Source of the DNA: Eledone cirrhosa
Taxonomy: Eukaryota
NCBI GenBank assembly: GCA_964016885.1
Contig: OZ024743.1
Coordinates: forward strand, 54,808,001 to 54,872,000
DNA: 64,000 nt
Direction: 5' to 3'
The notes beneath the pieces were generated by a model. It did not search any database. It was not told the origin of the DNA and saw only the letters and a program-made list of their open reading frames with translations. This document shows positions 5,542 through 62,327 of the stretch, one piece after another. Both the position numbers and the translations under genes were made by a program. How positions within the stretch are numbered: the stretch's first letter is position 1; each line of letters begins with the position of its first letter.

Positions 5542-6030
5542 TACGGCCTCGATATGAATACCCCCTCCGCCTCCGTAGTATTTTCTTCGTGGTTATAAGA
5601 GGCTTAGCTCTGTTTCTCGACCGTTATATCGCGTGACTATCTCCCCCTCCGCCTTTTGGGATTCTTTCTCACGTCGTGTAGACGCGTTCTTGAGACTAGT
5701 AAAATGAGGTATCCTCTTGATAAGTTGGCAGACCTCGCAAGGACTCTATATCTTTGATATATTGTTTTTGTTTATGCCACGAAACTACGTAGTCGAGGAA
5801 TTTAGGAGCAGTTTAGATATGATACATTTTATTACTAATTATATCTAAATGTTTCTTCTCTCTTCATAATGTATTTTTAACTCTGATACTGGTTCAGTCT
5901 GGTTCAAACTGAATTGGTCTGTCCCAGTCATTCATTGAGCAACATCGGTGAAGTTGGCACCCTTAACTCACAGTTGGGTGCGGATGCATTCATGTATATA
6001 TGTGTGTGTCCGCATGTATCTGTGTGTTTC

Positions 6031-6035
<5 letters not shown>
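5542..6035 (+). mobile_element. Retrozyme-like family A, partial monomer
   Basis: Near-identical to 20394-21137 and 41604-42327; flanked by (TA)n; no credible ORF. Confidence 0.8.
5713..5798 (+). ncRNA. Type I hammerhead, U3-A8 core variant (family A)
   Basis: cctc-TTGATAA-gt(t)ggca...tgccac-GAAAC tacgta GTC-gagg. Predicted cleavage after 5794. Confidence 0.8.
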
Positions 6036-15900: not shown

Positions 15901-16408
15901 GGCTGATCAGGTACTTGAGGCTTTTGCACCCCCCGCTCCTATCAGATACTCCCACACAATCCCAGCGTGCTTCTAAGATGCCATTCCAATCCCCTATTAA
16001 CAGTAAAGGGCGAGACGTAAGCAGAAAGTTTTCCAGGCGCCTAAAGAAGTCCGGCCGACCGGCCCCAGTAGGGGCGTAGACGGCCACCAGTCTAAAGGCA
16101 CCACCTTCGCTATTGCTCACGTCCAGGACCACCAACTTGCCGTCAGGATCCCGGAAGATTGACCTTACCTCGAGATCCAGACATTTCCTAAACAGCACAG
16201 CCACTCCACCTCCCATTCCCGGCCGACTAACAGATGCAAAGATCTGATAATCGTCGAAAATCGGCGCCAGTGCGCGTGTGTCGGAAATTCTGGTCTCGCT
16301 GATGGCAATTACATCCATTCCTAGTGACCTGAGGTCGTTGAGCAAGTGACCTTGCTTCCAGGGCGACCCCAGGCCACGAACATTTAAACTTCCTACTCTT
16401 ATGGCCAT
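12989..16408 (-). CDS. LINE ORF2: AP endonuclease + reverse transcriptase + C-terminal Cys/His motif (1139 aa)
   Basis: SLNVRGL, GDWN and SDH (endonuclease); PGLDG, LDQSKAFDRV and AYADD (RT); CPRC...ETVLHALVQC. Confidence 0.95.
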   Translation of the reverse strand: MAIRVGSLNVRGLGSPWKQGHLLNDLRSLGMDVIAISETRISDTRALAPIFDDYQIFASVSRPGMGGGVAVLFRKCLDLEVRSIFRDPDGKLVVLDVSNSEGGAFRLVAVYAPTGAGRPDFFRRLENFLLTSRPLLLIGDWNGILEARWDCVGVSDRSGGCKSLKYLISQFQLSDRYRLDFPNAPVWTWTNRIGSSRSYIDRIFFRKRDRNSVGCPHFKTVAYSDHKLVICMVDLDKTRRLGPCYWKLNMSFPARKAYRDRVNNLVKQKLTGGVVNNRWWGALKREIRATSIGFSKEVAIEKNRKEEGLIAQLDEASCSGIATDVLAARMALDHFFNAKHEGCIVRAKARALRNEGTKAARWARFAETQRGNKTTIRSLTDRDGHELSDSKQMCEAFRQHFARLFGRMGESETAADFSPYLDGLPRLSTADAERCEEPITSVEIQDALVGCSSRKSPGLDGLPYELYVNMPDLFSDLLEALYCNWQQNGSIPSSVSRGVVTLIRKDENKRDTLDNFWPITLLNTEFKILAKVLAKRLALVVKDLVGEAQTCAIPTRSIHDNLHLMRYIIERVGCKPGFGGALINLDQSKAFDRVDHRYLEAVLEAAGFGPVFRSWIAAMYSGICSVVKVNGHLSEPFQISRSVRQWCPLSSLLYVLTLEPLLRKLELLQGIPLEPGRRKAASAYADDITVMVSDTSEIEVIRTHLEEYERLTGAKLNPEKSVGLQLGTWRGKSMPSNSVVGRWTDGPVKLLGVWFGPDLQVDKNWDEVTSRIANLTQKWAERKLSLKGRAEVANAYIASVIYYRLTVVPCPRPRLANLERLLFKFLWRGRVPLVRRSICCQHTLRGGLGMSWLMMRRHALRLRHPQIFCLNGEQVWSPFVRRAFPQLISLTELQSWVKKRPRLGDWHLECCQALTALCKVGNAVSGTSTQDFYRGLVEGKYDDVLGEALGVNEVELTSMFRRTFEPGTMDNFQKSLAWQCYRGSLPVRDKLYWHGSAVRRTCPRCAQSDETVLHALVQCPCIADLWGYVEQLLSRVERIRLSSESIVKIDPPPSFGQEGQAIFLCLVAVAKEVAWWTRLKGLKTDTFLFGQSLINFFKFHLERKVRVEREVLPPSTFTERWVNVARMARVSGPTLIMRL

Positions 16409-16440
16409 GCTGGCAGGATGAATGGGAGAGGAAAGGTTTA

Positions 16441-18351
16441 CTAACCTTCCGGGGTCTTGTGAAGGTCGGGTGGTTCGACCTCCATGGTTTGTGGGGTTTC
16501 TTTTGGGAACCCCTTTAATAGTCTTGAAGTGGGTTTTACGTTCGGGGTTCCCACATCCCGAGGAAAGCTCTTTCGAATTTCTTTGTATGAAGCGAGCGAC
16601 ATTCGCATCAGAAGCAAATTATCTGGTACGCGAAATGTGCTCGCTTCAAATGTTTCCCCCTCTTTTTCGATGTTTGTGCTTCGTGCTACATGGGCCATCA
16701 ATTCCTTGTTGGCCCTTCTGGCAAGCACGAAGTTTTTAATGTTTTGTTGCTCAGGTTTTATTTGTTCGTGTGATTGTGGTGGTGATAGCTTTGTTAGTGT
16801 TGTTTCTATTGTGTCTGCGTTTGTTGTGGGTGGGGTGTCTGTAGTTTCTGATGTTTGTGTGTCTATTTGTTCTTGTGTCTGTTTAGCTTGTTTGCGTTTG
16901 GGGGATTTTGGTGGTTGTGTTGGTGATGCTGTGGGGAAAATGTTTGTGTGGGTGGTGTGTGTATTTTTTTTTGTGGGGGTGTTTGTGCTTTGCGGATTTC
17001 TTTTTTTTTTGTGTTTTGTTTTTTGTATTTTGGGGGACTTTGGTTTTCCCTCATCTTCACTGCTGGAGGATGAGGGGTCTGTGGCTGTGAGCGTGTTTGT
17101 GTCTGAGTGAGTGTTTATGTTCTTGTTCTTGTGTGTATTTGGGGGGGGGGGAGGGGGAATGGGAGAGCTTTCCTCGTTTCCCCCCTGGGTGTGCAATTTT
17201 GGTGGTTCCATTGTTGACGGTGTTGCTGGTGGTCCTTGTCCCGGCGTCGCCAGCAGTAGAATCTTTCGACCCCTTGCGCTTTTCGGCAGTTGAGGGCAGA
17301 AGGCTCGCAAGTGTGTCGTTTCCCCACAAAGGAAACAATGCGGCCTTTTGCCCTCAGTCATTATATGCAACACCCTCCCGTTTTGGAGGCGGATGTGGTC
17401 CGGGATTGCTTTTACGTTTTCGGGTCTGATTTGGAGCAGTATCTCCAGATCAACCCCGGACCAGTCGTCCCTGGCAGTTCTCGTTGCCTCTACCGGGACT
17501 GTATCCGTTCCTTCCACGATTACGCAACCCAGGAGCCACCACATATCAAGTCCTGGTGGAATCCTGGGAATGCGCACACGTGCTATTCGTTTTCCCATGT
17601 GGGAGGGGTACATTATGACCTTGCTGGTTTTGCAAGGGGTCATTGAATGCTTCACAGCGAGGGCTTCAGACTTGAACAGCACCGAAACGGTGCCGTATTG
17701 CCTGCCCCTCTCTATGAAGTCTGTGTCCTCTCTGATGTATTTCAGTGCGGCTTCTATATCAGCTTGGGTTATTATCGCTGCCCTCTTTGTCTCTACTGAG
17801 ATGCATCTGAAATGCACCGTTCTTTTTTCCACTGCCTCAATGGCTTCTGCCGGGACAGTTAAGTTTGCCCAGGTCTGCTCTTGATTTATGATTTTCCAGG
17901 CCTGGGCCAACTTTTCCTCTCTGTTGGTTAAGTCGATGCTGTAGCATGGTCTCCTTTTAGCCGCTGCCACAGCAGCGAAGGTGTTCTTGTTGGTGTTGTC
18001 ACTGTTTTTGTTCTTGTTGGTGTTGCTGCTGCTATTGCTGTTGTTGTTCTCCCCTGTGTCGTGGTTACCCTCTGTGCTGTTGGCCTTGTTGGTGCTGCTG
18101 CTGTCGCTACTATTACTCTCTGTGCTGTTCGTTTTGTTGGTGCTCTCGCTATTACCACCTTCTGCGCTGTTCGGCTTGTTGGTGTTGGTGTTGTCGCTGT
18201 TACCACCTTCCGCGCCGCTCGGCCCGTTGGTGCTGGCACTGTCGCTGCTCACACTCGTGCTGGTGGCGCTCCTCGCCCCACCTCTCCTCTCAACGCTCAA
18301 GTCGCCGTTGCACGACAGCAGACCCGCCTCTAGGGGGCGTGGCTCCGCCAT
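16441..18351 (-). CDS. LINE ORF1 (gag-like, CCHC zinc knuckle, 636 aa)
   Basis: CFLCGETTHLRAFC fits CX2CX4HX4C; Ser/Asn-rich N-terminus; ends 32 bp upstream of ORF2. Confidence 0.9.
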   Translation of the reverse strand: MAEPRPLEAGLLSCNGDLSVERRGGARSATSTSVSSDSASTNGPSGAEGGNSDNTNTNKPNSAEGGNSESTNKTNSTESNSSDSSSTNKANSTEGNHDTGENNNSNSSSNTNKNKNSDNTNKNTFAAVAAAKRRPCYSIDLTNREEKLAQAWKIINQEQTWANLTVPAEAIEAVEKRTVHFRCISVETKRAAIITQADIEAALKYIREDTDFIERGRQYGTVSVLFKSEALAVKHSMTPCKTSKVIMYPSHMGKRIARVRIPRIPPGLDMWWLLGCVIVEGTDTVPVEATRTARDDWSGVDLEILLQIRPENVKAIPDHIRLQNGRVLHIMTEGKRPHCFLCGETTHLRAFCPQLPKSARGRKILLLATPGQGPPATPSTMEPPKLHTQGGNEESSPIPPPPPPNTHKNKNINTHSDTNTLTATDPSSSSSEDEGKPKSPKIQKTKHKKKRNPQSTNTPTKKNTHTTHTNIFPTASPTQPPKSPKRKQAKQTQEQIDTQTSETTDTPPTTNADTIETTLTKLSPPQSHEQIKPEQQNIKNFVLARRANKELMAHVARSTNIEKEGETFEASTFRVPDNLLLMRMSLASYKEIRKSFPRDVGTPNVKPTSRLLKGFPKETPQTMEVEPPDLHKTPEG

Positions 18352-18877
18352 GTTTTTTTGAGAAAAAAAATTATTATTTTTCCAAAATAAAGTTCAAATA
18401 TTTGGGCCAAAAGGCCCAAATATTATGAGTTATTCCTTCACAGGATACAAATGAATGTCTTATAATGCTTCAGCGGTACAAAAAAATAAACAATTCTCCA
18501 CAATTAATCCTCAAAAAATTGCTTACTCACGGAGCTTCAAAAAACGTACATCCACTCTCGTCAATAATAATAATAATAATAATAATAACAACAATAATAA
18601 TAACGACAACAACAATAATAATATACATATACATATATATATGCACATACACGCACACACATAAAGATATCTATACACACACACACACACGATACCAACT
18701 AACAGCGCTGCGATCGAATGTGGCTTTTTAGCCAAGCCAATGATCTAAAATGTCTTGCACAGAGTCGGCAACCAAAACATTCACTGGGAATAGTCGGCTG
18801 TGGTTGGAGTTCGTGTACTTTTGCATGTCGTGGTAATTTCGTGGTAATTTCTATGTAGGTTATACTTGGAGTAATAA

Positions 18878-20395: not shown

Positions 20396-21132
20396 CAATA
20401 TATTTAGAAACACACAGATACATGCGGACACACACATATATACATGAATGCATCCGCACCCAACTGTGGGTTAAGGGTGCCAACTTCACCGATGTTGCTC
20501 AATGAATGACCGGGACAGACCAATTCAGTTGAACTAGACTGAACCAGTATCAGAGTTAAAAATACATTATGAAGAGAGAAGAAACATTTAGATATAATTA
20601 GTAATAAAATGTATCATACCTAAACTGCTCCTAAATTCCTCGACTACGTAGTTTCGTGGCATAAACAAAAACAATATATCATAAAGATATAGAGTCCCTG
20701 CGAGGTCTGCCGACTTATCAAGAGGATACCTCATTTTACTAGTCTCAAGAACGCGTCTACACGACGTGAGAAAGAATCCCAAAAGGCGGAGGGGGAGATA
20801 GTCACGCGATATAACGGTCGAGAAACAGAGCTAAGCCTCTTATAACCCCGAAGAAAATACCACAGAGGCGGAGGGGGTATTCATATCGAGGCCGCAGAAG
20901 AGGTGGTGAAGAAGGCTAGAAGTATGAGTAATGGAAGCTTTCCAGTTGTCCCCACACTTCAAAGATTGCTCGACCAGAGGGAGTTATTAACAATATATTT
21001 AGAAACACACAGATACATGCGGACACACACATATATACATGAATGCATCCGCGTAGTCGAGGAATTTAGGAGCAGTTTAGGTATGATACATTTTATTACT
21101 AATTATATCTAAATGTTTCTTCTCTCTTCATA

Positions 21133-21137
<5 letters not shown>
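20394..21137 (-). mobile_element. Retrozyme-like family A, ~1.1 monomer plus inverted arm
   Basis: CAATATATTTAGAAAC recurs at 20396 and 20991 (period 595); strand switch at ~21052; hammerhead at 20638-20725 (-). Confidence 0.85.
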
Positions 21138-21209
<72 letters not shown>

Positions 21210-21380
21210 AGTTAATATAAATTAATATATATGATAAACACTAATACAATCATATAAGTGTTTGTATTGTAAATGACCAAGTTAGCTAAATTGAAAAATA
21301 CTAATTAGATTAATACAGTTTGCCTGTCTCGATTTAAAATAATAAATCAATAAAAACAAACCCATATTGGCAATAGCTGT

Positions 21381-21510
21381 GGTACTTGGACAAATTTAAA
21401 TTTCAAAATACAAACCTGTTCCGTAGATAAGTTTAAACTTCAAAACCCAAATAAGTTTCGATAATTGAAAAAGTGAAACATTCCATCTTCTGTTCTCATC
21501 AGCAAGTACC
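21381..21510 (-). ncRNA. Type I hammerhead with long stem III (family B)
   Basis: ggtacttg-CTGATGA-ga...tc-GAAAC...(~60 nt)...GTC-caagtacc; perfect 8-bp helix I. Confidence 0.75.
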
Positions 21511-22074
21511 CAGAAAATTGGTATGTTTCACCTCAGAATATTTAAGAGGACTGATCGACGCACATGGTTTTTCAGCGTCTAGCTACCCCATACTCGTGCT
21601 GCTAGAAATAACAGACGTTTATATGGGACTAAAATTAGCTCAACAATAGAGTAATAAACTCAAACAGTCTTTTACAATTAAATAGCTCAAAGAAAGAAGT
21701 ATTTCTGAGCCGTGAAATACAAGTTAATATGAATTAATATATATGATAAACACTAATACAATCATATGTGTTTGTATTGTAAATGACCAAGTTAGCTAGA
21801 TTGAAAAATACTAATTTGATTAATACAGTTTGCCTGTCTCGATTTAAAATAATAATTATTATTTTAAACTTATCTACGGAACAGGTTTGGATTTTGAAAT
21901 TTAAATTTGTCCAAGTACCACGGCTATTGCCAATATGGGTTTGTTTTTATTGATTTATTATTTTAAATCGAGACAGGCAAACTGTATTAATCTAATTAGT
22001 ATTTTTCAATCTAGCTAACTTGGTCATTTACAATACAAACACTTATATGATTGTATTAGTGTTTATCATATATA

Positions 22075-22167
22075 GGTTGACTTTGCCTTTCATCCTTACG
22101 GGGTCGATTAAATAAAGTACCAGTAATGCACTGGGTAATTGCTGGCCTTGTGCCTAATGTAGAAACA
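22075..22167 (+). mobile_element. 5'-truncated SINE nested in family B
   Basis: 20-bp TSD ATTAGTGTTTATCATATATA at 22055-22074 and 22168-22187. Confidence 0.85.
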
Positions 22168-22286
22168 ATTAGTGTTTATCATATATATTAATTTATATTA
22201 ACTTGTATTTCACGGCTCAGAAATACTTCTTTCTTCGAGCTATTTAATTGTAAAAGACTGTTTGAGTTTATAACTCTATATATATA

Positions 22287-27059: not shown

Positions 27060-30000
27060 ATGACCTCACTCAGAATAGGCAGCATAAATGCGCGTGGCTT
27101 GGGGTCGTCATGGAAGCAGGGTCACCTGCTCAACGACCTCAGGTCACTAAACATAAATGTAGTGGCCATCAGCGAGACCAGAATCTCCGAAGCACGGGCC
27201 TTCGCACCGATCTTCGGCGGCTACGATGTGTACGCATCTCCCAGCCGTCCTGGATCGGGGGGAGGAGTTGCTGTGCTTTTTCGGAGAGGTTTGGATCTCG
27301 CCATACGGGCCATCTTCCTGGACCCAGAGGGTAAGTTGGTGGTGCTGGACGTGACCAGCGGAGACGGGCAAGCTTTCAGGCTAGTGGCCGTCTGTGCCCC
27401 GACAGGAGCAGGGCGGCCTGATTTCTTCCGGCTTCTGGAGACCTTTCTTGGAACGTCCCGCTCTTTAGTGTTAGTGGGCGACTGGAACGGGATCTTAGAT
27501 GCACGTTGTGACTGTGTGGGATTAGCGGATAGGGGTGGAGGGTGCAAGAGCCTCACCAACCTGCTCAGGCGTTTTGAACTGTCTGACAGGTACTGATTGG
27601 ATTTCCCGAATGTGCCAATGTGGACTTGGACAAATCGGAGAGGGTCATCCAGATCATATCTACATAGAGTATTTTGTAGGGAAATAGATAGGTCTAGCAT
27701 AGGCTGTCCACAATTCAAGATAGTCAGCTACACGGACCACAAATTCGTGATCTGTGTGCTTGACTTAGATAGGATTCATAGACGAGGACCCGGCTACTGG
27801 AAGCTAAACGCGTCCTTACCAGCGCGCAAGGCCTACAGAGACCGGATTAGCGAACTAGTTAAGCGGGCGTTGACGGGGCCCATCGTCAACAACAAGTGGT
27901 GGTTTGCTCTGAAAAGAGCGATTAGAATAGAATCCATTAGATTTAGTAAGGCTTTACCAATAGAGAAAAATAGAGCAGAGGGAGAACTAGTTAGAAAATT
28001 AGACGAGGCGCTTAGCAAAGGCATTGCGACCGACTTGCTTGCGGCGAAATTGGCCCTTGGCCAATTCTTCAATGCAAAGCACGAAGGCTGCGTTGTCAGA
28101 GCTAGGGTGCGTGCTCTCAGACACGAGGAGACGAAAGCCGTTCAATGGGCCCGAGTGGCAGAGGCGCATCGTGGCAACAAAGCCACGATCCGGTCTTTGG
28201 TGGACCACGACGGGCGCATGCTACTAGATCCCGGGAAAATGTGTGAAGCTTTTCAGCGACACTTCGCTCAGCTGTTCGGGGGCAGTGGTGGGTCGGGTCG
28301 AGGGATGGACTTTAGTGTCTACCTCGACGGACAGCCGCGGCTATCGGTCACTGAGGCGGAGTTTTGCGAAAAGCCGATAACAACCGCTGAAGTACGGGAG
28401 GCAATGACTGGCTGCACAAGGAGTAAATCGCCTGGTTTGGATGGTCTGCCCTATGAACTTTACGTACAGATGCCAGACTTGTTCGGAGGCCTCTTGGCGG
28501 ACGTCTACTGCAACTGGCAACAGAACGGGAGAATTCCCAGTTCTGTGAGCCGAGGAGCGGTGGCGCTGCTGAGAAAGGATCCGAACAAGGGGGATAACAT
28601 AGACAATTTTAGGCCCATAACTCTGCTAAACACAGAGTTCAAGATTTTGGCCAAGGTGCTAGCAAAGAGGTTGGCGCTTGTCGTTGGTGGTCTGGTGGGA
28701 GAGGCGCAGACATGCGCCATTCCCGAGAGATCCATCCACGACAACCTCCACCTCATGCAATACATCGTAGAGAGGGTAGCTAGGGAACCTGGAACGGGTG
28801 GGTCCTTGATCAATTTAGATCAGTCGAAAACTTTCGATAGGGTCGACCATCGTTACCTAGCGGCAGTCCTGAGGCGGCTGGCTTTGGGCCCGTCTTCAGA
28901 GGCTGGATCGCTGCCATGCACAGCGACATCTGCTCTGTGGTGAGAGTGAACGGTCACCTTTCGGAACCGTTCAACATCATGCGCTCGGTCCGCCAAGGAT
29001 GTCCCCTCTCGTCCCTCTTGTACGTATTGACTCTCGAGCCATTACTGCACAAACTGGAAACGTTGAGAGGCGTCCCGCGCGAACTAGGATGCGGAAGATC
29101 CACGTCAGCATATGCGGACGATGTCACCGTAGTGGTGTCGAACGCCAAACACATCGAGGCGATCGGCACTACACTAAGAGAATACGAAGCGGTGACAGGA
29201 GCAATGATCAACCAGGAAAAGTCAGTGGGCCTGCAGCCCGGCACCTGAAGAGGCAGGTCCATGCCGTCCAACAGCGTCGTCGGACGCTGGACAGACGGAC
29301 CGGTTAAATTGCTAGGGGTCTGGTTCGGTCCGGACCTCCAGACGGACAAAAACTTGTACGAGGTGACGAGCAGGGTGGCTTCTCTCACCCAGAAATGGGC
29401 GGAGAGAAAGCTATCCCTGAAAGGTCGAGCGCAGGTGGCTAACGCGTACATCGCGTCTGTCATCTGCTACCGCCTGACCGTCGTACCTTGTTCTAAGCCC
29501 CGCCTGACTGCGCTGGAGCGTTTGCTCTTTCGCTTTTTGTGGAAGGGACGCGCTCCGATGGTCAGGAGGTCCATCTGCTGTCAACACCCGCTACGTGGAG
29601 GGCTGGGCATGCCGTGGCTGATGATGCGCAGACACGCGCTCAGGCTACGACATCTCCACCTCTTCCTCGGCGGTGATCAGGTGTGGTCGCCGTTTGCTAG
29701 AGACGTATTTCCCCAGCTTGTTTCCTTGACGGAGCTGCAGTCCTGGGTCAAGCGAAGACCGAGAGGGAGCGCCTGGAGTCTGGAATGTCTTTAGGCGCTC
29801 ACAGCCCTCGACCAATCGGGTAATGTGATCGGTGGAAACTCCACCTCGGCGTTCTATAGAGGATTAGTGGAGAGGAAGAGCGACGACGTACTTGGGGAAA
29901 CTCTAGGCTTCGACTAAAATCAACTAGCCAATCTCTTCGGAAGAACTTTCGGGCCGGGACCTATGGACAACTTCCAGAAATCTCTGGCCTGGCAGTGCTA

Positions 30001-30479
30001 CTGAAGAGCCTTGCCAGTTCGGGATAAACTCTACAGGCGGTGCCGTCAGCCGGGCATGTCCGAGATGCGCGCAGGGCGACGAAACCGTCCTGCATGCACT
30101 CATCCAATGTCCGAAAATTGCTGACTTGTGGGTTTATGTCGAACACCTGCTGTCGCGTGTAGGACGGATCCGGCTATCATCTGAGTCCATCGTGAGGATT
30201 GCCCCGCCCTCTTCCTTTAGCCGGGAAGGGCAGGCAGTTTTTATCTGTCTGGTGGCCATGGCGAAAGAGATAGTATGGTGGACACGTTTGAAAGGGCTGA
30301 AGACGAGCACTTACCTCTTCGGTGATGCCCTGATTAACTTTTTCAAATTTCATTTGAAAAGGAAAATCAGGGTAGAGAGGGAAGTGCTCTCTTCCCAGCA
30401 TTTTGTTGAAAGATGGGTGAGAGAAGCAAGAATGACCCGAGTGAATGGGGCCTACTCTGAGTACGTATCTGTAAATTAA
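27060..30479 (+). pseudogene. LINE ORF2 with stops and frameshifts
   Basis: Segments 27060-27596, 27597-28943, 28916-29248, 29261-29794 and 30126-30479 are collinear with the intact ORF2; QGCPLS and YADD present. Confidence 0.93.
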
Positions 30480-41549: not shown

Positions 41550-41603
<54 letters not shown>

Positions 41604-41608
<5 letters not shown>

Positions 41609-42327
41609 TTAGAAACACACAGATACATGCGGACACACACATATATACATGAATGCATCCGCACCCAACTGTGAGTTAAGTATGATACATTTTATTACTA
41701 ATTATATCTAAATGTTTCTTCTCTCTTCATAATGTATTTTTAACTCTGATACTGGTTCAGTCTGGTTCAAACTGAATTGGTCTGTCCCAGTCATTCATTG
41801 AGCAACATCGGTGAAGTTGGCACCCTTAACTCACAGTTGGGTGCGGATGCATTCATGTATATATGTGTGTGTCCGCATGTATCTGTGTGTTTCTAAATGT
41901 ATTAATAACTCCCTCTGGTCGAGCAATCTTTGAAGTGTGGGGACAACTGGAAAGCTTCCATTACTCATACTTCTCGCCTTCTTCACTACCTCTTCTACGG
42001 CCTCGATATGAATACCCCCTCCGCCTCCGTGGTATTTTTTTCGTGGTTATAAGAGGCTTAGCTCTGTTTCTCGACCGTTATATCGCGTGACTATCTCCCC
42101 CTCCGCCTTTTGGGATTCTTTCTCACGTCGTGTAGACGCGTTCTTGAGACTAGTAAAATGAGGTATCCTCTTGATAAGTCGGCAGACCTCGCAAGGACTC
42201 TATATCTTTGATATATTGTTTTTGTTTATGCCACGAAACTACGTAGTCGAGGAATTTAGGAACAGTTTAGGTATGATACATTTTATTACTAATTATATCT
42301 AAATGTTTCTTCTCTCTTCATAATGTA
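41604..42327 (+). mobile_element. Retrozyme-like family A, ~1.1 monomer plus inverted arm
   Basis: TATGATACATTTT recurs at 41681 and 42272 (period 591); 41604-41680 is inverted; hammerhead at 42167-42252. Confidence 0.85.
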
Positions 42328-42791
42328 TATATATATATATATATATATGCACATACAAATAAATACACTCGCGTAATGAATCAATGAATGAATCCCACTC
42401 TTGTGGCTGATCTTCCTTGGTTTTAGTCACAACCACCTCCGGACCACACGTTTTATCTTCATGCTCTCTTCGGGAAGAATAGGGTCAGTGGGCCCCAAGT
42501 TCTCTTCAGACCCGATTTACTGTTAGGTATGATTTCTTTAGCCTTAGTCTCGACACTAGCTCTCACAGGCAATGGAGGTTTATGCTCGGTGGTGTCGTTC
42601 TTCTAATCTGGCTGTCTTTCTAGGCTGCTTAGTCCAGATCAATCGTTATACGCGATAGGGACCTTAGTGTCAGACGTGCTGTTAAACAACTGGGTATGTG
42701 GCAACACTCAGCTTCTGTTAAAGCTTGTCTGTGTATATTGGAGTACCGTTCCTTTAAATCATCCCCACCACACACATGTGTGTGTGCGTGC

Positions 42792-44480: not shown

Positions 44481-47400
44481 ATTTCTGTTTATTTGCCACG
44501 AGGGCACAAAAGAAAGGGACACATCCATGGGGGGGGGGGGGGTTACATAGAAATCGAGTAAAAAAATGTAATAACAAATAAAATTATAACAAAAAGGTCC
44601 TCAATAGGGAGGGATCGTTTTGGGGTCACACAGACCGCCGAAAAAAAATGTGCAACCCTTCTCCACGGGAGCACAAAGAGAGGGTGCTCCCTTCTTCCTT
44701 CATCCTTTTCCACCTACAGGCTGAGGTAGAGAGAAGGCCCATTGACACGGGCCATTCTCGCAACTTTCACTCACCTTTCATAAAACTGGCTGGGGTGGAG
44801 CACCTCTCTCTCCATCCTGATCCTTCTTCCGAAATGGTATCGGAAGAAAAGGACGAGTTGTTGGCCGGAAAGAAAGGTGTCCGACCTCAGCCCTTTTAGA
44901 CGCGACCACCATACAACCTCTTTTACCATGGCTATTACACAGAGGAAGACCGCCTCTCCTTCATTTTTGAAGGGGGAGGCGGCTTGATCGTTACAATGGA
45001 CTCGGTGGTCAACCTAATTAGTCCCACCCGTGACAGCAGTTGTTCGACAGCCCCACAGATCGGCAATGCCCGGATAGTGTACCAATGCGTGCGCGACGGT
45101 TTCCTCGTCGCGCACGCATCTGGGACAGATCTTTTTCGAGGGGTCCCTACCCTGGCGCCCGTGTCTGTAGAGCTTATCCCGAACGGGCAGAGCCCCTCGG
45201 TAGCACTGCCAGGCCAAGGACTTCAGGAAGTGGTCCATAGGTCCCGGGCCGAAAGTCCTACCGAATAGGCTGGCCAGTTCGTCCTCCTCCATGCCTAGGG
45301 TTTCTCCGAGGGCGTCGTCGCACCTGCTAACCACCAACCCTCTATAGAATGACGAAGTGGAGTCTCCACCGACAGCCGGGTCCGCCTGCCAGAGAGCCGT
45401 AAGCGCCTAGGCACACTCGGTGTGCCAGTCGCCCAGTTTTCTCGGTCTTTGCTTCACCCAGGACTACAGCTCGGTGAGCGAGACGAGCCTCGGGAAGGCT
45501 CGCCTCACAAACGGGGCCCACACCGGTTGACCGGTGAGGAATACCTGGAGGTATCGTAGCCTCAATGCGTGTTTACGCATTTTTAGCCACGGCATCCCCA
45601 GCCCTCCTTTCAAAGGGTGTTGACAGCAGATAGATCTCCTCACCAGAGGAGACCTCTTCTTCCAAAGGAAATGAAAGAGAGCGCGCTCCATTTTGGCGAG
45701 GATCTCACCCGGGCAAGGCACGACAGTCAAGCGGTAATAGATGACGGACGCTATGTAAGCGTTCGCCACCTCCGCCCGACCTTTCAGGGATAGTTTGCAC
45801 TCGGCCCACTTCTGGGTCAGTGCAAACACCCTATTCGTCACCTCAACCCAATTTTTCTCCACCTGGAGGTCCGGTCCGAACCAGACCCCAATCAACTTCA
45901 CCGGGCCCTCCGTCCACCGTCCGACGATACCGTCGGACGACATCGGTTTTCCCCTCCACTCGCCGAGTTGCAATGCGACTGACTTGTCCCGGTTCAACTT
46001 AGCCCCTGTCAAATTTTCGTACTCCTCCAGTAAGGTGCCGATTGCCACGATTTCCGCGGTGGTCGACACCATTACTGTTACGTCATCGGCGTAGGCCGAC
46101 ACCGCTTTGCGCAATCCCAGTTCCAAAGGGATGCCCTGCAACAACTCCAACTTCCGGACTAGTGGCTCGAGAGCCAATACATACAGAAGGGAGGAGAGAG
46201 GGCACCCCTGTCGGATGGAACGGGTGATTTCGAACGGCTCCGAGAGGTAGCCGTTCACCTTGACTCTAGAGCAGAAGCGGCTGCTATGCATGGCAGTGAT
46301 CCAGCCCCTGAAAACGGGTCCGAAACCAGCCGCCGCTAGCACCGCATCCAGGTAACCATGGTCCACCCTATCGAAAGCTTTAGACTGATCTAAATTTATC
46401 AGGGCCCCACCAAAGCCGCGTTCGTTCCCAACCCTCTCTATGATGTATCGCATGAGGTGGAGGTTGTCGTGGATGGACCTGGACGGGATAGCGTATGTCT
46501 GCGCATCTCCCCCCCCCCACGACAAGCGCCAGCCTTTTCGCTAACACCCTGGCCAAAATCTTTAACTCTGCATTTAGCAGAGTTATGGGCCTAAAATTAT
46601 TAAAATTACTAATGTTCTCGTCCTTCTCCACTAGCGAGACTACGCCCTTGGTCACAGAACAGGGAATTCTCCCGTTCTGTTGCCAGTTGCAGTAGACCGC
46701 CTCGAGGAGATCGGGGAACAAGTCCGGCATATTAATATATAGTTCGTAGGGCAGCCATCGTGGCCTGGAGATTTGCGTTTGCCGCATAGGTTTAGCACGT
46801 CCCCTATTTCAGCAGCTGAGATCGTCCTGTTGCAGGACCTCGTCTCCTCGTCCGAAAGACGCGGCAGGCCGTCGAGGTATGGACCGAAATCCCCCCCCCC
46901 CCCGCCCCATCGGACAAAGTGCCTTTGAAAGGCCTCGCACATCTGCTTAGGTTCAAGGATCACCCATCCATCCTGGTCTCGCAAAGACCGGATAGTGGAT
47001 CTAATCCCACTTTTGGCTTCTGTCACGCGAGCCCAGTTAACAGCTTTGGTCCCCTCGTTTCCCAGAGCACGTATTTTGCTTCGGACAACGCAGCCTTCGT
47101 GTTTCGCGTCGAAGAACTGGCTCAAGGCCGTTCTCGACGCTTGCACTCTGGCCACGTTGCCGCTTCTAATTGCCTCTTCAACATTCACTACCAACTCCCT
47201 TTCCTTCCTATTTCTATCTGAGGCTAACTCCTTAGTAACTCCTATTGAAACTACTCTAATCTCTCTTTTCAACCGCTCCTTAACTAAGGTTCTAATCCGG
47301 TGCCTGTAAGCTCTACTTGACGGTAAGGACAAGTTGAGCTTCCAGTAACCGGGTCCCTGCCTATGCGTTCTATTGTTACACCCCCCTCTATCGGGACATG

Positions 47401-47570
47401 CCCCTATATAGTCCCAACGTGCATCTAGGATACCATTCCAGTCCCCCACTAAAAGCAAGACGGGGGACGTCCCTAGAAAAGTCTCCAGACGATGGAAGAA
47501 GTCCAGCCGCATTGCCCCAAAAGGGGCGTAAACGGCGACCAGCCTAAAAGCTTCGCCTTCACCACTGCCA
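44481..47570 (-). mobile_element. 5'-truncated, decayed Tx1-clade LINE (ORF2 and 3' UTR)
   Basis: Broken ORF2 with GDWN, LDQSKAFDRV, QGCPLS and YADD; 3' end CCCTCGTGGCAAATAAACAGAAAT. Confidence 0.9.
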
Positions 47571-49692: not shown

Positions 49693-50503
49693 CAGGGTGC
49701 GGAGGATATTTGTTCGCAAGGTTGCTGTCTAGGAAAAAATAACACAGTATTTTTATTTTTTAAGATATATTTATCAAACTTGGGTCAGTTTGTCTTCATG
49801 ACTTGGTCTTTCGATCCCACTCGATAAACTTGCCATGGGCTTTGATGACGGCCTCAAGGTGGCCTCGGAACCGACTACAGGTCTTCGTCACTGTCCCCCG
49901 ATTAGGCCCATAAAGGCACTTGTGATCCTGGCCTTCAGATCGTCTTTCGTGTTGCAGCTAGATCTGTTGGTGTCTCGTTCCACTGCACCCCACACAAAGA
50001 AGTCGAGGGGGTTGCAGTCGGGCGAGCTGGGAGGCCAGATGTCAGGTGAAGTGTGGTCGACGAAGTTCTCTGACAGCCAGGCTTGGGTCTTTCGGCTGGT
50101 ATGGCAGGGCGCTGAGTCTTGCAGCCACACGTACGGCCTACCTGCAGCTACATGGTCGATCCAGGGCTTTACTACCTCGCTCAGAACGCGGATGTAGCCA
50201 TTGGTGTTCAGCTTGAGGCCCTCAGGGAAGAAGTGAGGTGGGCACGTCTTTGGATGAGACACCATTCTCCTGCTGACGCTGAGAAAGTCTGAAATTTCCA
50301 TATTTGTCCTCCCGGTGCGGATTCCAAGAACTCCGTGTCTCTTCCAGAAATTTGGAGGTTCAAAATTATTCATAATCAATTATTCTGAAAATAAATAATG
50401 TAAATATAGTCACTGTTTTTATGAAGACAAGAGTGATAACGGAAGTAAAAAAAATTTGCATAAAATTAGCAGTTGGAAATTGCGAACAAATATCGTCCTC
50501 ACC

Positions 50504-50506
<3 letters not shown>
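49693..50506 (-). mobile_element. Internally deleted Tc1/mariner DD37D (maT/mori-type) transposon
   Basis: ~27-bp TIRs CAGGGTG.GGA.GATATTTGTTCGCAA with TA flanks; QDSAPCH...WPPSSPDCNPLD has 37 residues between the second and third catalytic Asp. Confidence 0.9.
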
Positions 50507-55696: not shown

Positions 55697-55940
55697 TTTG
55701 TTTTGCGAGGTTTTTGATATGATATCGTGTGTCGAAACAAATATTGTTATACTTGGGGAGGGTCATATTGTTGTAATAATATTGCCAGAAATAATAACAG
55801 AACACACTCACTGTTTGGTCGGTTTATATATATGGAGATATAAAAGATACAGAAACGAAAACCTACCAAATAGTGAGTGTGTTCTGTTACTATTTCTGGC
55901 AATATTATTACAACAATATGACCCTCCCCAAGTATAACTA
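55697..55940. mobile_element. Two-armed PLE tail insert
   Basis: ~55746-55820 is inverted at ~55865-55938; same family as 1798-1973. Confidence 0.7.
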
Positions 55941-55995
55941 TATATATATATATGAGGGTGTTAAAGTTTGCTTGAAGCATTGTGAAATGTGTAAA

Positions 55996-56336
<341 letters not shown>

Positions 56337-56602: not shown

Positions 56603-57559
56603 GATATTAAATAAATGGAAACTATATTTATAAAACCATATTTATTTCATTATATATATTTCAGGGATATCATATTAACAATATGCTATGCCTTCCTCAG
56701 ACAAAATACAATATAAGCAGTTTTATAGATAAATAGATTTGACATACCGTACAACATCGACTTGTATTTGAAAAGTTGAATTGGCAGTGAAAAAATTGTA
56801 AACAGAAAGCAAGAAAGAGAGAAAAAAAAGGAAAGAAAGACAGAAAACGAAGAAAAAGAAAAAAAAGAAGAAATGCATGGAACAAAATAGAGAGATGGAA
56901 AGATAGATAAAGAGAAGAACTTCATGTAAAGAAACAGAGAGAGATATATAGAGAGAGAGGAAATAGATAGAGATAGATATATATATAGAAAAATATGTAG
57001 TTGGACATCCGTTGAGTAAACGTATCAATGATACATTTATTTATTTATTTATTTATTTAGCTCTAGTATTAATGTAAGGGAGATATATGTGGTTAGGAGA
57101 GAAACCAGCTGTTATATAGAGAGAAAAATGAAAAGTAACCAGACATAGGCGAGGCATAAAAACCCTATGTTTTAATGTAGAAGTATTAATATGTATAAAA
57201 ACCAGGCATTATATTGAAAATATCAGTATTCCTGAATGAGACACGTATCCATAATGTGTGAAAAGTAATGATCTTATGTTTAGTTTTAAAAAATTCATAT
57301 GTTTATATGATAACTACAAACATCAATGTGAATTTACATGATCAACTCTGCAAACCCTAAGTCACACGGAAAACATTCTCAATTGTGCTATAAAAATTTA
57401 AGTATACACATATGTGTATATATATACACATATATATATAGAGTCTATATTACTACTATTCTTGTCTTTACTCTACAAGATTATCTATCAAGCAGAAATA
57501 GAGAGCAGATTTCAATATATTAATAAAAAATATATCAGAAACAAAAACCAAAAAACAAC

Positions 57560-58054: not shown

Positions 58055-58570
58055 CTACATTTTAAATTTAAATTTATATTTAAAAGTTGAGTTTAATCTA
58101 TGTTTGCAGCAACTGAATAAATTTGTCCGTAGATTAAGGGAATTTTTAGATTTTAGTATAAAGAATATCTCCTCTGCGCAGAGGTCACATGTCTCAGAGG
58201 ATGAATTAAAAGGAATCCCTCTTGAGACTATATTCCAAGCCGTCGAATATCTAACGTTATCTAGCTTAAGTTGCCAGAGTACACCTGATAGTGCCGTTGA
58301 AGATTTTTTGCTTGGATCTGTGAAAGAATTCTTGTGGTTATTATAGCGAAGTTTAAATTCCGTCGATGTGAAACCGACGTAGTTAAAAGAATTAGAATCA
58401 GTTTTAACATTACAATTGTATACTATATTTTTAACTAAGCAGTTGTTATTTAACGGACATTTAGATCTATCTCTACAGTTACATTTGTTAACTTGTATAT
58501 TATTTATGCTATTATCACTAGGTTTTAAGTTCCTATTATTTATTCTATTAAACTTCGCTATAATAACCAC
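58055..58570 (-). CDS. Stand-alone GIY-YIG endonuclease domain of PLE type
   Basis: CNCRDRSKCPLNNNC, IVY...YVG, KLRYNNH, CDLCAEE and LNLRTNLFSCCKHR; open frame, but only a GTG start. Confidence 0.75.
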   Translation of the reverse strand: MVIIAKFNRINNRNLKPSDNSINNIQVNKCNCRDRSKCPLNNNCLVKNIVYNCNVKTDSNSFNYVGFTSTEFKLRYNNHKNSFTDPSKKSSTALSGVLWQLKLDNVRYSTAWNIVSRGIPFNSSSETCDLCAEEIFFILKSKNSLNLRTNLFSCCKHRLNSTFKYKFKFKM

Positions 58571-58676
58571 AAGAATTAATGCCCTTTAAAGTAAGGTGGG
58601 AAGATGGGTATATTTTAAAGAGGTGTATGTATATGTGCCTTTGAGAAAAGATTCTAAATTGATAAAGAATTGAATA

Positions 58677-61136
58677 TTAACTGTATACTTTGTGAAAAGT
58701 CCTATGGAATTTATGGAGGCAGATAGAAAATAAATCTGTACGTCTATTTATTATAGAATCTAGGTTAGAGATAATGGTAAATTTTTCATTTAGGCAGAGA
58801 TTACAGATTTTAGATAGAGAGCTGTTCAAGTATGAGGATGCAGAAGAAACCTTCTTCCAAAAGATGGTATATTTAATGTTTTTGTCTTTTAAGGACCATA
58901 TGAGTTCTGAGAGAGCAGTGTTGGTTCTTTTAAGTTTGTATTTGAAAGATGAATGATGATTATAGAGACGAGCTTTAAAAGAGGTGGAAGTGGAGCCAAA
59001 ATAGGTGAAGGAATTGGTGCTAGTTATAATTTTACATTCATAAATTAAGTTTTTATCGAGACAATGGTTGTTGAGAGGACATTTATTTTTAATGCGGCAG
59101 TTGCAATTAGAGAGATTATTAATGAGTGACCTAGTGTTATCTATAGAAGGAATTAGATTGGAGAAGTTGTTTGCGATAGGAATAATAGGAATAATAGTTT
59201 CTTGATTTAGAGTTGGATTATGAACATTTAGCGAAGTTGTGTTTGACGTTGTATTTGTGTTTACAGAAGTTAGCCTAGGGTTTACAATGACGTCGGGAGT
59301 ACTATTACTGTTATGAAATTCAATGTTGGAAGGAAGAGATTTAGTATTTAGTATTTTATTGTTGTGTTTAGAGATGATGTTGGAAATATTGGAGGATGTA
59401 GAATAAGAAAATTTGATGGTGTGTTTGTTAAATATTTTACTATAGATATGTGAGGGAGGGAAGCATTTATTTAAGGCACTAAAAAATAATTTAGGAATAT
59501 TGTTATTAATAGAGATGGAGAAAGGAGCATTATACCAGATTATGTTTTTGTATCTAGGTCTTTTATTAAAATTATTGGAATGATCATGATTAATTATTCT
59601 ACTGTAAGTTTTTCTAGAATTTGTTTCTTTACTATATTTGATTTTATCTGGATAGCCGGCTTTAGAAAGTGCGTTATTATAGTAATTGGCGTTAGCATCA
59701 AAGATGTTTTTATTAGAGGATATGTTAGATATTCTTTTTCCAATATTACTAACTATAGCATTCTTGATATTGGTAGGATGGTTAGATTTAAAGTTAACAT
59801 AATTTAGGTTCTCATTGTTTTTATGGTAAGGGTAATATAGGCCAGTGTCAAGATTAAGAGATACATCCAAGAAATTAGCTAGTTTGATACTATTATCAAA
59901 TTCAATTTTTAGGTTATGTTGGTTAAAGAGATTACGTATATTGTTCTTAATAATATTAAGGTTAACTATATTGCAATTTAAGATAGTAAAGAGTCCATCG
60001 TCACGATAAATTCCACCGCGAAGTTGAGGAATTTTCCGACTCAAAGAGTTCAAAATGAAGATACCAATTAAATCAGTCAATTGGGATGAATCGGATGCTC
60101 CCATTGTGATATCGAAGTTGTTAGAGGTATCGGCTCTGGTCCAATATTCGTTGTTGAACTCTAGGATGGTTTTACGTGCGGTGAGGATGATGTGAAGTTC
60201 ATCTGTGGTGATGTCAGAATATTTAAGTGCGAAAGATAGAGCATTATTGAGAAGTGAAGGCGAAATGGAGGAATAGTAGCTGGCAATATCAAATTGAATA
60301 AATTTTAGTTTGTTTTTATTATCCAATTTGTTGAACCAGCCAATCACCTCAGAAGTACCAAACCATAAATTTAGGTTCAAAGAAGAGCAATTAGAACTAA
60401 CCTGTGGGATAATTCTATCCAAGATGGCTTTACTAACAACCCCCAGATCAGATTTAGAGGGGGCGATTAATCTAACAGGTAGTTCAGTGCGAAAATTGTT
60501 TTTGTGATCCTTGAGATTTATCCTCGGAGTTCTTGGGAGGAATGGTTCGGTCTTTTTTTCAATGCCAAGTTTTGACATAATCTCAGAGGCTTCAAGGTTT
60601 ATGTATTCTAAATTTTCATGGTTGGTTTTACGATACTTTTTCCTAAGTTCCTTTAGGATAAGGTTGTTATAATTATCCTTGGAAATACCATATAAGTTAT
60701 TGGTTTTGTCAGAGTGGACTAAAACATTTTTTGAGGAATTTAGGTTAGAGATTGTGTTCTTGAGATTTACAAGGTGCTCTTGTCCTTTGTAAGGGTATCT
60801 CTTGAATTTAAGATTTTTTATTATTTTAGTTAATTTTTCCTCGAATTGTACTAGATTTTTGTTGGAAGGAGGATTTCGTCTAGAATTAAAAAGATGATCG
60901 AGGAAGTTATGTTCTTTGGTATGGAAGTTCTCTTTAAGGCGCTGGTCATAGAAATAGGCTGTCCATCTAAGTCTTCCTACGAAGGAGTCAGTTTTTTCAA
61001 TAAGAAGTTTGGTGAATTCAGATTTACCAGGTATAGGAATGTCTTTAGTTGAATTGGTTATGTTGTAATAATCCATGTTGTAGAAGAAGAGGTGAAGGAC
61101 CATCAAAAGGTATCCAATATGAGAGTAAGCGCTCAA
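58677..61136 (-). CDS. Penelope-like element polyprotein: RT + Cys-rich linker + GIY-YIG (819 aa; true start may be MDYYN)
   Basis: SDKTN, KDHK, PVRLI, FDIASYYSSI, MGASDS and IYRDD (RT); FLDV, YHK and SNHP; CNCRIKNKCPL, LIY...YFG, RLYNH and CNLCLNEK. Confidence 0.93.
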   Translation of the reverse strand: MSAYSHIGYLLMVLHLFFYNMDYYNITNSTKDIPIPGKSEFTKLLIEKTDSFVGRLRWTAYFYDQRLKENFHTKEHNFLDHLFNSRRNPPSNKNLVQFEEKLTKIIKNLKFKRYPYKGQEHLVNLKNTISNLNSSKNVLVHSDKTNNLYGISKDNYNNLILKELRKKYRKTNHENLEYINLEASEIMSKLGIEKKTEPFLPRTPRINLKDHKNNFRTELPVRLIAPSKSDLGVVSKAILDRIIPQVSSNCSSLNLNLWFGTSEVIGWFNKLDNKNKLKFIQFDIASYYSSISPSLLNNALSFALKYSDITTDELHIILTARKTILEFNNEYWTRADTSNNFDITMGASDSSQLTDLIGIFILNSLSRKIPQLRGGIYRDDGLFTILNCNIVNLNIIKNNIRNLFNQHNLKIEFDNSIKLANFLDVSLNLDTGLYYPYHKNNENLNYVNFKSNHPTNIKNAIVSNIGKRISNISSNKNIFDANANYYNNALSKAGYPDKIKYSKETNSRKTYSRIINHDHSNNFNKRPRYKNIIWYNAPFSISINNNIPKLFFSALNKCFPPSHIYSKIFNKHTIKFSYSTSSNISNIISKHNNKILNTKSLPSNIEFHNSNSTPDVIVNPRLTSVNTNTTSNTTSLNVHNPTLNQETIIPIIPIANNFSNLIPSIDNTRSLINNLSNCNCRIKNKCPLNNHCLDKNLIYECKIITSTNSFTYFGSTSTSFKARLYNHHSSFKYKLKRTNTALSELIWSLKDKNIKYTIFWKKVSSASSYLNSSLSKICNLCLNEKFTIISNLDSIINRRTDLFSICLHKFHRTFHKVYS

Positions 61137-61152
61137 CCGTTAAGGAGCAAGT

Positions 61153-61283
61153 TAAAATACATGGAACTCCTTTAACCATCTTTTGATCTTATATTATGTA
61201 TACTCCAGTCCTACAAACTGTAGAGTGCTTCTTATCCGATATCTGCATTGCTTTATTGTACTACAATAAAACTCACCTCCTAC

Positions 61284-61287
<4 letters not shown>
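61153..61287 (+). mobile_element. Inverted pLTR arm at the 5' end of the PLE
   Basis: Matches the sequence directly downstream of the hammerhead cleavage site in 39893-39940 (-) and also 40141-40167 (+). Confidence 0.7.
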
Positions 61288-61324
<37 letters not shown>

Positions 61325-61451
61325 ATGTATGCTTTTGTGTTTTTGTGTGTGTGTTTGCATGTGTAGTTTTATTTTATTTTTCCTTTCCTTCTTCCTTCTC
61401 CAGCCTTACTTGTTTTTAAAATCCAAATTCAATAAAAAGACCAGGATTTTT

Positions 61452-61510
61452 TTCATTCTGAGGATTGAAAGCAAAATCTTTTGCTTTTAAGAAACCAGTG
61501 GTAAATAGAA
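61452..61510 (+). ncRNA. Intact type I hammerhead
   Basis: att-CTGAGGA-ttgaaagcaaaa tc ttttgcttttaa-GAAAC cagtg GTA-aat. Confidence 0.75.
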
Positions 61511-61632
61511 TAATTGCCTTATGTTGTTTATTACATAACTATTAAGCTCTGTTACCTACATAGAGCACTCTTTTTTCCTGGACTTTTCCGACGGAATTAC
61601 TTCATTTACACACATATATATATATATATATA

Positions 61633-61950
61633 TAAGAAAAAAAAGATCAAATCGAAAATGCAACTGGAGTCTTTTTTTTTAAATATATTTATTTCGTTCC
61701 TTTACCGGTTTCGCAGTTCTTGTGCTTTTCAAAAGTAGAATTAAGATGGAGGTTTTAAAAACCACAAACCCTGCATCTCAATTCTACCTTTGAAAAGCAC
61801 AAGAACTGCGAAACTGGTAAAGGAACCAAATAGATATATTTAAAAAAAAAGACTCCTGTTGCATTTTCGATTTCATCTTTTTCCCTTATACTTTCACTCG
61901 TGTAGGACACCCTCGTTTTTTTTTCATTTTGTAAAAAAACCTCACTTTCT
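61633..61950. mobile_element. Two-armed insert with two minimal U3-A8 hammerheads (61700-61735 -, 61787-61822 +)
   Basis: ctt-TTGAAAA-gca caagaac tgc-GAAAC cg GTA-aag on the minus arm and a near-identical copy on the plus arm. Confidence 0.8.
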
Positions 61951-62327
61951 ACGATATCCTGAACTTCAGCGACGAACTCGGGCGTTCTGCAGGCGTCAGA
62001 TCGTCGATCATGTGTTTTCCTCTCTGATGTTGCTTCGTAGTCGAATCCTGAATCTTCCAATTCCTTTCTGACCTTTTCCACCATTCTCCTGCTGACGCTG
62101 AGAAAGTCTGAAATTTCCTTATTTGTCCTCCCGGCGCGGATTCCAAGAAGAACTCCGTGTCCCTTCCATAAATTTGGAGGTTCAACATTATTCATAATCA
62201 ATTATTCTGAAAATAAATAATGGAATATAGTCACTGTTTTTATGAAGAAAAGAGTGACAACGGAAGTAAAAAAAATTTGCATAAAATTAGCAGTTGAAAA
62301 TTGCGAACAAATATCGTCCACACCCTG
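61946..62327 (-). mobile_element. 5' portion of the DD37D transposon (TIR and N-terminal region)
   Basis: Near-identical to ~50260-50506 and supplies N-terminal sequence deleted in that copy. Confidence 0.85.

Follow-up and report, generated by a model that had tools for sequence, protein, structure and literature searches.

A 591-nt retrozyme-like repeat of Eledone cirrhosa with the insertion footprint of coding Hydra-clade PLEs

The non-LTR retrozymes of metazoans are dispersed, non-coding tandem units with a GC content below 50% and one type I hammerhead each, and they co-occur with intact PLEs (Cervera and de la Pena 2020, PMC7229834; Li, Clavereau and Pollet 2026, bioRxiv 10.64898/2026.07.22.740005). 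The endonuclease-bearing PLEs of the Hydra clade insert in (TA)n, carry a hammerhead near the 3' end and show 5' truncation and a tandem and inverted structure, with a tail on a single end and inverted 5' copies (Craig et al. 2021, PMC8557442). In the case of PAc, the Poseidon PLE of Anolis carolinensis, the protein starts reverse transcription at two internal sites which define the tail, the target is AT-rich, both strands are cut and a dimer model has been put forward (Frangieh et al. 2024, PMC11167929). The repeat described in our study was found in a 64,000-nt stretch of the Eledone cirrhosa genome, hereafter the window, and it resembles all three systems in the above features, the hammerhead being a prediction and the two internal starts, the cutting of both strands and the dimer being proposals in its case. 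Circles of retrozymes have been shown in coral, mussel and axolotl (PMC7229834) and a PLE origin of retrozymes is argued in bioRxiv 10.64898/2026.07.22.740005, while the mobilisation of animal retrozymes by PLEs has so far been proposed from co-occurrence and pLTR likeness.

The repeat is also different from each of these systems. Its 591-nt unit is longer than the 170-400 nt retrozymes of PMC7229834 and lies inside the 51-972 bp of bioRxiv 10.64898/2026.07.22.740005, whereas a U3-A8 core and a long loop II set it apart from the retrozymes of both papers. Inverted two-arm insertions with two fixed ends, which are found in the repeat, are not described for retrozymes in the accessible parts of these two sources; on the other hand, expression, cleavage and circles were shown there, whereas the repeat is known here from sequence alone. 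In comparison to the Hydra-clade PLEs, the repeat lacks an ORF and shows no extended similarity in sequence to the four intact Hydra families of the same genome, and its tail of 165 nt is about twice that of these families (77-83 nt) and exceeds the 30-40 bp given in PMC8557442. The same four families share with it the paired-end rule and, mostly, an RCUC...GAGY motif. PAc differs in being autonomous, in having adjacent starts inside the ORF and in its C3-G8 hammerhead, which is protein-assisted and which insertion in vitro does not require (PMC11167929). Neither the kind of element nor its U3-A8 core nor its unit length is new; the first-pass annotation of this DNA had presented the length and the core as unusual, but both are published (PMC4209133, PMC3088659, bioRxiv 10.64898/2026.07.22.740005). 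In our literature search, neither this family nor a strict pairing of ends in retrozymes was found to have been described; Repbase, Dfam and the supplements of the 2026 preprint lay outside the search and may hold this family or one related to it.

The unit has no protein gene and a GC content of 41.6%, and its position 1 was set at window 41680. On the circular map the longest ATG-started frame has 75 codons and the longest stop-to-stop frame 86, which bears out the earlier claim that no credible ORF is present. The linear unit folds better than its shuffles (z -4.9). The window holds three copies with 97-99% identity, all of them in (TA)n, and the annotation was right on these points as well as on the periods of 595 and 591 in two copies; a complete hammerhead-like motif with a U3-A8 core is predicted in each copy, in agreement with the single type I hammerhead claimed. 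One copy (41603-42328) consists of a 649-nt forward arm at 41680..42328 (+), i.e. one 591-nt unit plus 58 nt, and a short inverted arm of 78 nt at 41603..41680 (-), which covers unit positions 146-223. The 3' end of the former is a fixed site, E1, and that of the latter a second fixed site, E2, both being followed by (TA)n. The second copy is a single 5'-truncated arm at 5542..6035 (+), running from unit position 317 to E2. The third (20397-21138) has a long arm at 20397..21052 (-), which starts at unit position 164 and goes once round to E2 with the period of 595, and a short arm of 87 nt at 21052..21138 (+), from unit position 563 to E1. Two of the three copies are thus pairs of opposite-strand arms joined at their 5' ends and not single units. 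Neither are the copies freely permuted, as had been proposed; what looked like circular permutation reflects truncation at the 5' side of arms that begin at two fixed starts, because the 3' ends are fixed and only the 5' ends vary. Internal copies of both end sites lie in the forward arm, E1 at 41728..41737 (+, unit position 58; the site serves as the actual end at 42328) and E2 at 41893..41902 (+, unit position 223), and these are the putative reverse-transcription starts 1 and 2.

The same anatomy was observed well beyond the window. We pooled 100 loci (17 from the best unit matches, 53 from a 55-Mb scan, and 10 and 20 from two further sets), of which 99 hold the element, with 155 complete arms. 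E1 (unit position 50-64) or E2 (213-232) forms the end of 147 of the 155 arms, and 141 of these 147 pass directly into TA; the spacing of 165 nt between the two sites makes up the one-sided tail. The pairing of the ends is near-obligate. All 45 classifiable pairs of inverted insertions join E1 with E2, four more pairs having an unclassifiable end. Among 60 rows from older strata, obtained with queries ending at E2, 29 pair rows are again E1 with E2 (two of them repeat pooled loci), and a single locus (L197/L207) departs from the rule with E2 at both ends. The 5' ends are scattered over the whole unit and are not enriched where the cut is predicted; the loci were picked by motifs in or upstream of the hammerhead, and the crossing of the cut site is partly due to this selection. 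Inner arm junctions share 1-5 bases in 17 of 20 cases. Arms longer than one unit are frequent (77/155) and some exceed two units (18/155), and all are unit sequence end to end, with no LTR arrangement around a unique interior. Dispersed copies with fixed 3' ends and scattered 5' ends are a retrotransposition footprint.

In the 3.0-Gb genome we counted the helix III 14-mer 8,149 times and its reversed control 7 times, so that about 8,000 hammerhead copies are present, far beyond chance. This 14-mer count was used for the copy number because the motif scan of 55 Mb had a high control count (1,912). That scan, of the first 55 Mb of one contig, gave 53 motif loci, about one per Mb, one of them, L085, being a chance match to a 13-mer that was dropped from the family. 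When the genome was searched with the unit, 619 candidate regions were obtained, and the 40 best of these contained 187 matches, many of them 100% identical and in exact tandem; exact 591-nt tandem arrays are present and multimers are common. Ten loci with variant cores were all found to be family members. The annotation had called the family young, and this does not cover its whole age, since older strata at about 80% and at 71-77% BLAST identity are also present, in which the ends are unchanged and the unit length is still about 590-600 nt. In one older copy (L110:4021-4416), loop II of the hammerhead is split by a SINE-like insertion of roughly 390 bp with a short duplication.

The tandem arrays may call to mind a satellite-like DNA repeat that was amplified at the DNA level, by unequal exchange or rolling-circle DNA, after one old PLE insertion. 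Local amplification has been proposed for some retrozymes (bioRxiv 10.64898/2026.07.22.740005), and one local duplication of a whole insertion is seen here (L065). However, the 53 loci in 55 Mb are dispersed, and each has its own 5' truncation, a fixed 3' end and a TA target; a satellite origin is therefore highly improbable and already largely refuted. The family is abundant and was active recently, it is rather to be read as a non-autonomous passenger of PLEs and a kind of retrozyme, and by its sequence it falls within the definition of metazoan non-LTR retrozymes.

Coding PLEs with the same footprint exist in the same genome. An intact Hydra-clade PLE ORF of 820 codons lies in the window at 58677..61139 (-); it is not part of the repeat, at least 55 copies of it are found at 97-100% identity among the matches listed, and it is an example of the likely helper class, as a candidate only. 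A search with a distant relative led to further intact Hydra families of 714/715, 719 and 784 aa, making four in all. No Pfam family was matched by the window ORF or two relatives, and the Hydra label therefore rests on the motifs of PMC8557442 (R-W-K/R/T, DKT, YRDD and CxCx5C), which are present in all four proteins; the GIY-YIG core pattern had no match in any of them. In each family there are two 3' ends, which are 77-83 nt apart and both run into TA. Outward pairs were mixed in 8 of 8 cases for the 821-aa family, and nearest outward pairs in 28 of 28 for the 784-aa family, for which a looser all-against-all count also gives some same-end pairs; for the remaining two families just 2 and 4 pairs were available, of which one had the same end on both sides. 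The repeat hence gives insertion-level evidence for a PLE link, as its paired ends and target are the same as those of coding Hydra PLEs within one genome.

A few observations on these coding elements may be added. The window PLE (58677-61290, -) is young, its 3' region is cut by another Hydra-like fragment (58055-58585) and its inverted 5' arm is short; the hammerhead of its family is of the canonical C3-G8 type and has a palindromic helix III. Directly upstream of this 821-aa element, an inverted end piece of the 714-aa family was found at 61340-61620 (-), and PLE-type insertions accumulate in the same TA tracts. The 784-aa family has thousands of copies (11,926 matches for the pattern that it shares with the repeat) and forms full-length tandem arrays of period 3,531. 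It carries a U3-A8 hammerhead with a helix I/II context similar to that of the repeat, which is hence not alone in having this core; helix III of the 784-aa hammerhead is long and monomer-stable (L174:1182-1270, L214-L233).

The unit itself is no autonomous PLE, as a single ORF with reverse transcriptase plus a GIY-YIG endonuclease at the C-terminus is absent from it. Arms continuing into an ORF were found in none of the about 160 loci read, out of several thousand, and because no sampled copy joins an ORF we prefer to regard the repeat as a non-LTR retrozyme which travels as a non-autonomous passenger of PLEs. Together with the insertion footprint, which equals that of the coding Hydra-clade PLEs, this supports, more strongly than the annotation was able to, the earlier proposal of a non-autonomous hammerhead retrozyme moved by a PLE enzyme. 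The competing explanation is that the unit is the pseudo-LTR of a coding PLE located elsewhere in the genome and that the copies are its truncated remnants. Retrozymes do often match PLE pLTRs, and 24 of 57 Xenopus families matched TEs, nearly all of them PLEs (bioRxiv 10.64898/2026.07.22.740005); short motifs which are shared after E1 with the 719-aa family and at the hammerhead with the 784-aa family suggest descent from a Hydra PLE, and with about 160 of several thousand loci read the parent could be rare or extinct. Against this, the arms are pure unit from end to end in 99 loci and in the 60 older-strata rows, Hydra ORF fragments near the repeat lie outside the arms (three read by eye), and past E2, at which point the ORF would begin in a PLE, the sequence is in every case that of the unit. 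Exact 591-nt multimers, as noted, are common. The lone apparent link to a parent, L059, was rejected, being a separate nested fragment that is missing from 44 other matches. In a BLAST comparison of the unit with the untranslated regions of the 821-, 714/715-, 719- and 784-aa families, no extended match was found and the matches were microsatellite-like only. We consider the pLTR origin improbable and retain the passenger reading.

The end sites of the repeat and of the coding PLEs have a further feature in common. An RCUC...GAGY motif lies 5 nt 3' of E1 (41743..41803, +) and again 5 nt 3' of E2 (41908..41924, +), and each may form a hairpin recognised by the enzyme. In five families, which are related and in which the motif was defined after looking, it begins 3-9 nt after 8 of 10 end sites, as compared with 0.013 per random position; in the 714- and 719-aa families the motif after E2 is imperfect. 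The predicted hairpin pairing is at least 0.8 in 6 of 12 cases and weak in the other six. For the E2-side motif it is 0.24-0.5, whereas the E1-side motif has a predicted pairing of 0.99-1.0 in the older subfamilies and 0.02 in the young window copy. The motif is a candidate recognition signal for the PLE enzyme, putatively common to the repeat and the coding PLEs, and candidate cis-signals for retrozyme mobilisation can thereby be named.

The predicted hammerhead occupies 42166..42253 (+) and has the core residues and the three helices in type I order. Helix I has 5 bp (42166-42170/42249-42253) and is followed by the core U3-U-G-A-U-A8-A9 (42171-42177), a long-looped helix II that contains a bulged C (42178-42184/42229-42234), GAAA (42235-42238) and a fully palindromic helix III of 10 nt (42238-42247), with a predicted cut after C 42248. 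The motif is present in each unit of the tandem arrays. In 191 matches, which were selected by the motif, the U3-U-G-A-U-A8-A9 core occurs in 187 and the GAAA...UC stem III 14-mer in 171. Across 65 aligned rows, chosen by the motif with 5 mismatches allowed per half, 96.3% of cells are paired as against 28-54% in slid controls. One helix I pair varies (U-A in 32, U-G in 13 and C-G in 19 of the 65), which as the sole covarying base pair probably represents one evolutionary event, and the other 13 pairs are without two-sided change. The predicted fold is conserved with age; in older-strata representatives of 84% and 79% overall identity, 44/45 and 43/45 positions of core and stems are identical, and the hammerhead is the best conserved part of the unit across strata.

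U3-A8 has been found in natural hammerheads and is active in vitro (Perreault et al. 2011, PMC3088659), and it occurs in a PLE hammerhead of Schistosoma (PMC4209133). The repeat is similar to the hammerheads of the Schistosoma Cercyon PLE (PMC4209133), of PMC3088659 and of D. virilis Penelope in the U3-A8 covariation, the palindromic helix III and the helix II bulge. It differs from them in a longer loop II of about 45 nt and in lacking a match to an Rfam hammerhead model at E 10. Rfam models gave no match at gathering score in the window and no hammerhead at E 10 over 41600-42400, which is probably explained by the long loop II and the variant core. The helix III palindrome forms no stable hairpin alone, and a duplex of -12.9 kcal/mol is predicted between two copies; its layout is as described for PLE hammerheads that act as dimers (PMC4209133). 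In the predicted fold of the circle, helices I and III have a pairing probability of 0.0 and the active fold costs 8 kcal/mol, and the hammerhead region alone folds no better than its shuffles (z -0.08).

The annotation derived a circular or multimeric template from the differing start points and the over-unit length of the copies. For a circle this is insufficient on its own, because 5'-truncated cDNA made on a linear tandem transcript looks alike. The same PLE passenger might accordingly be copied from linear, uncleaved tandem transcripts, its hammerhead being inherited, protein-assisted or rarely used and a circle being unneeded. Fixed 3' ends, scattered 5' ends and arms over one unit are also predicted by such a template, the active fold is disfavoured in the predicted structure, and the Anolis PLE mainly used RNA that was uncleaved in vitro (PMC11167929). 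A 621-nt contig from one run of unknown kind goes back on itself by 591, but it was not counted in favour of a circle because tandem DNA yields the same. A cleaved linear monomer was rejected as the main template, since a start at the cut site is seen in 1 of 155 arms, and positions 555-575 contain 7 arm starts as against 5.5 expected.

The sequence variants of individual insertions give better, though still indirect, support for a circle. In 65 of 90 young insertions some position is read at least twice. Variants found in several insertions were carried by every pass in 172 cases and by a part of the passes in 46, the latter being partly gap-placement artefacts and one local duplication, and common variants lie on both arms in 79 of 89 cases. 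Among variants found in a single insertion, 81 are on some passes only, as expected for later mutation, and 34, in 21 of the 65 multi-pass insertions, are on every pass; in L094 several such variants are on 7/7 or 8/8 passes across both arms. A new variant that is fixed in all units points to a one-unit template and then re-expansion, for which a circle is the simplest form; the template was thus probably one unit and circular, on the evidence of these variants. Linear copying would need repeated one-unit passage for the 34 cases and the up to 8/8 passes of L094. It would also have to account for 77 of 155 arms over one unit and 18 over two, though 5' truncation would shorten the arrays at each round, and for the hammerhead as the best conserved part across the strata. 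A few unit-specific variants (unit positions 166, 526, 533, 545, 560 and 563) are shared by two unrelated insertions and could be heterogeneity inherited from a linear array, and precise template re-entry or homogeneous source arrays may be other sources of unit homogeneity. On balance we regard the linear template as rather unlikely, though much less so than a pLTR origin.

With moderate confidence we propose that the protein-free 591-nt repeat is pasted into (TA)n by a Hydra-clade PLE, whose reverse transcriptase-endonuclease would copy it from a circular one-unit RNA that is predicted to be released by the hammerhead. A tandem copy would be transcribed by read-through and the RNA cut after window base 42248, probably by two hammerheads that pair through the 10-nt palindromic helix III, whereupon a host ligase would close it to a circle. 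The PLE protein, probably as a dimer, would bind beside E1 and E2 via the RCUC...GAGY motifs; both strands of the TA tract would be cut and each site would prime one cDNA. Rolling synthesis of up to about five units would stop at random, and the two truncated cDNAs would join through 0-5 nt of microhomology, single-arm copies arising when only one cDNA is captured. The two-start model is patterned on the Anolis PLE, which inserted in vitro without the need for hammerhead cleavage and for which reads ending at the cut site were absent (PMC11167929); in Xenopus, 8 of 9 retrozyme dimers were without cleavage in vitro (bioRxiv 10.64898/2026.07.22.740005).

A more specific set of Hydra-type rules can be suggested tentatively, and we hold it to be possible but somewhat doubtful. 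A dimer would bind two RCUC...GAGY hairpins on one RNA, each protomer would prime one strand of the TA tract from its own fixed start, and both would roll for several units on the hammerhead-made circle. If these rules are true, a retrozyme would need just two hairpin signals and a hammerhead for its mobilisation, the signals being common to the coding elements of the same genome. Many identical young copies lie beside intact candidate helpers, and hence the PLE link and the circular-template step are testable in vitro. The repeat may in this way serve as a test system for the choice of two start sites by PLEs and for the copying of circles.

Other elements were also noted in the window. Further hammerhead-like motifs belong to other repeat families at 56610-56710 (-), 39995 (-) and 21330-21510 (-); the motif at 21502 is within a separate tandem and inverted repeat (21209-22279), which adjoins the third copy of the 591-nt repeat across a TA tract. 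A near-perfect 228-bp palindromic element adjoins a TA tract at 55741-56227. Remnants at 49888-50506 and 61755-62327 resemble, by translation, what we take to be mariner/Tc1-type transposase. Diverged LINE copies (70-77%) with AP endonuclease, RT and zf-RVT are located at 12989-16618 (-), 27072-30460 (+) and 44713-47569 (-), the first of which has an open frame of 1,209 codons and an upstream ORF1 at 16441-18393.
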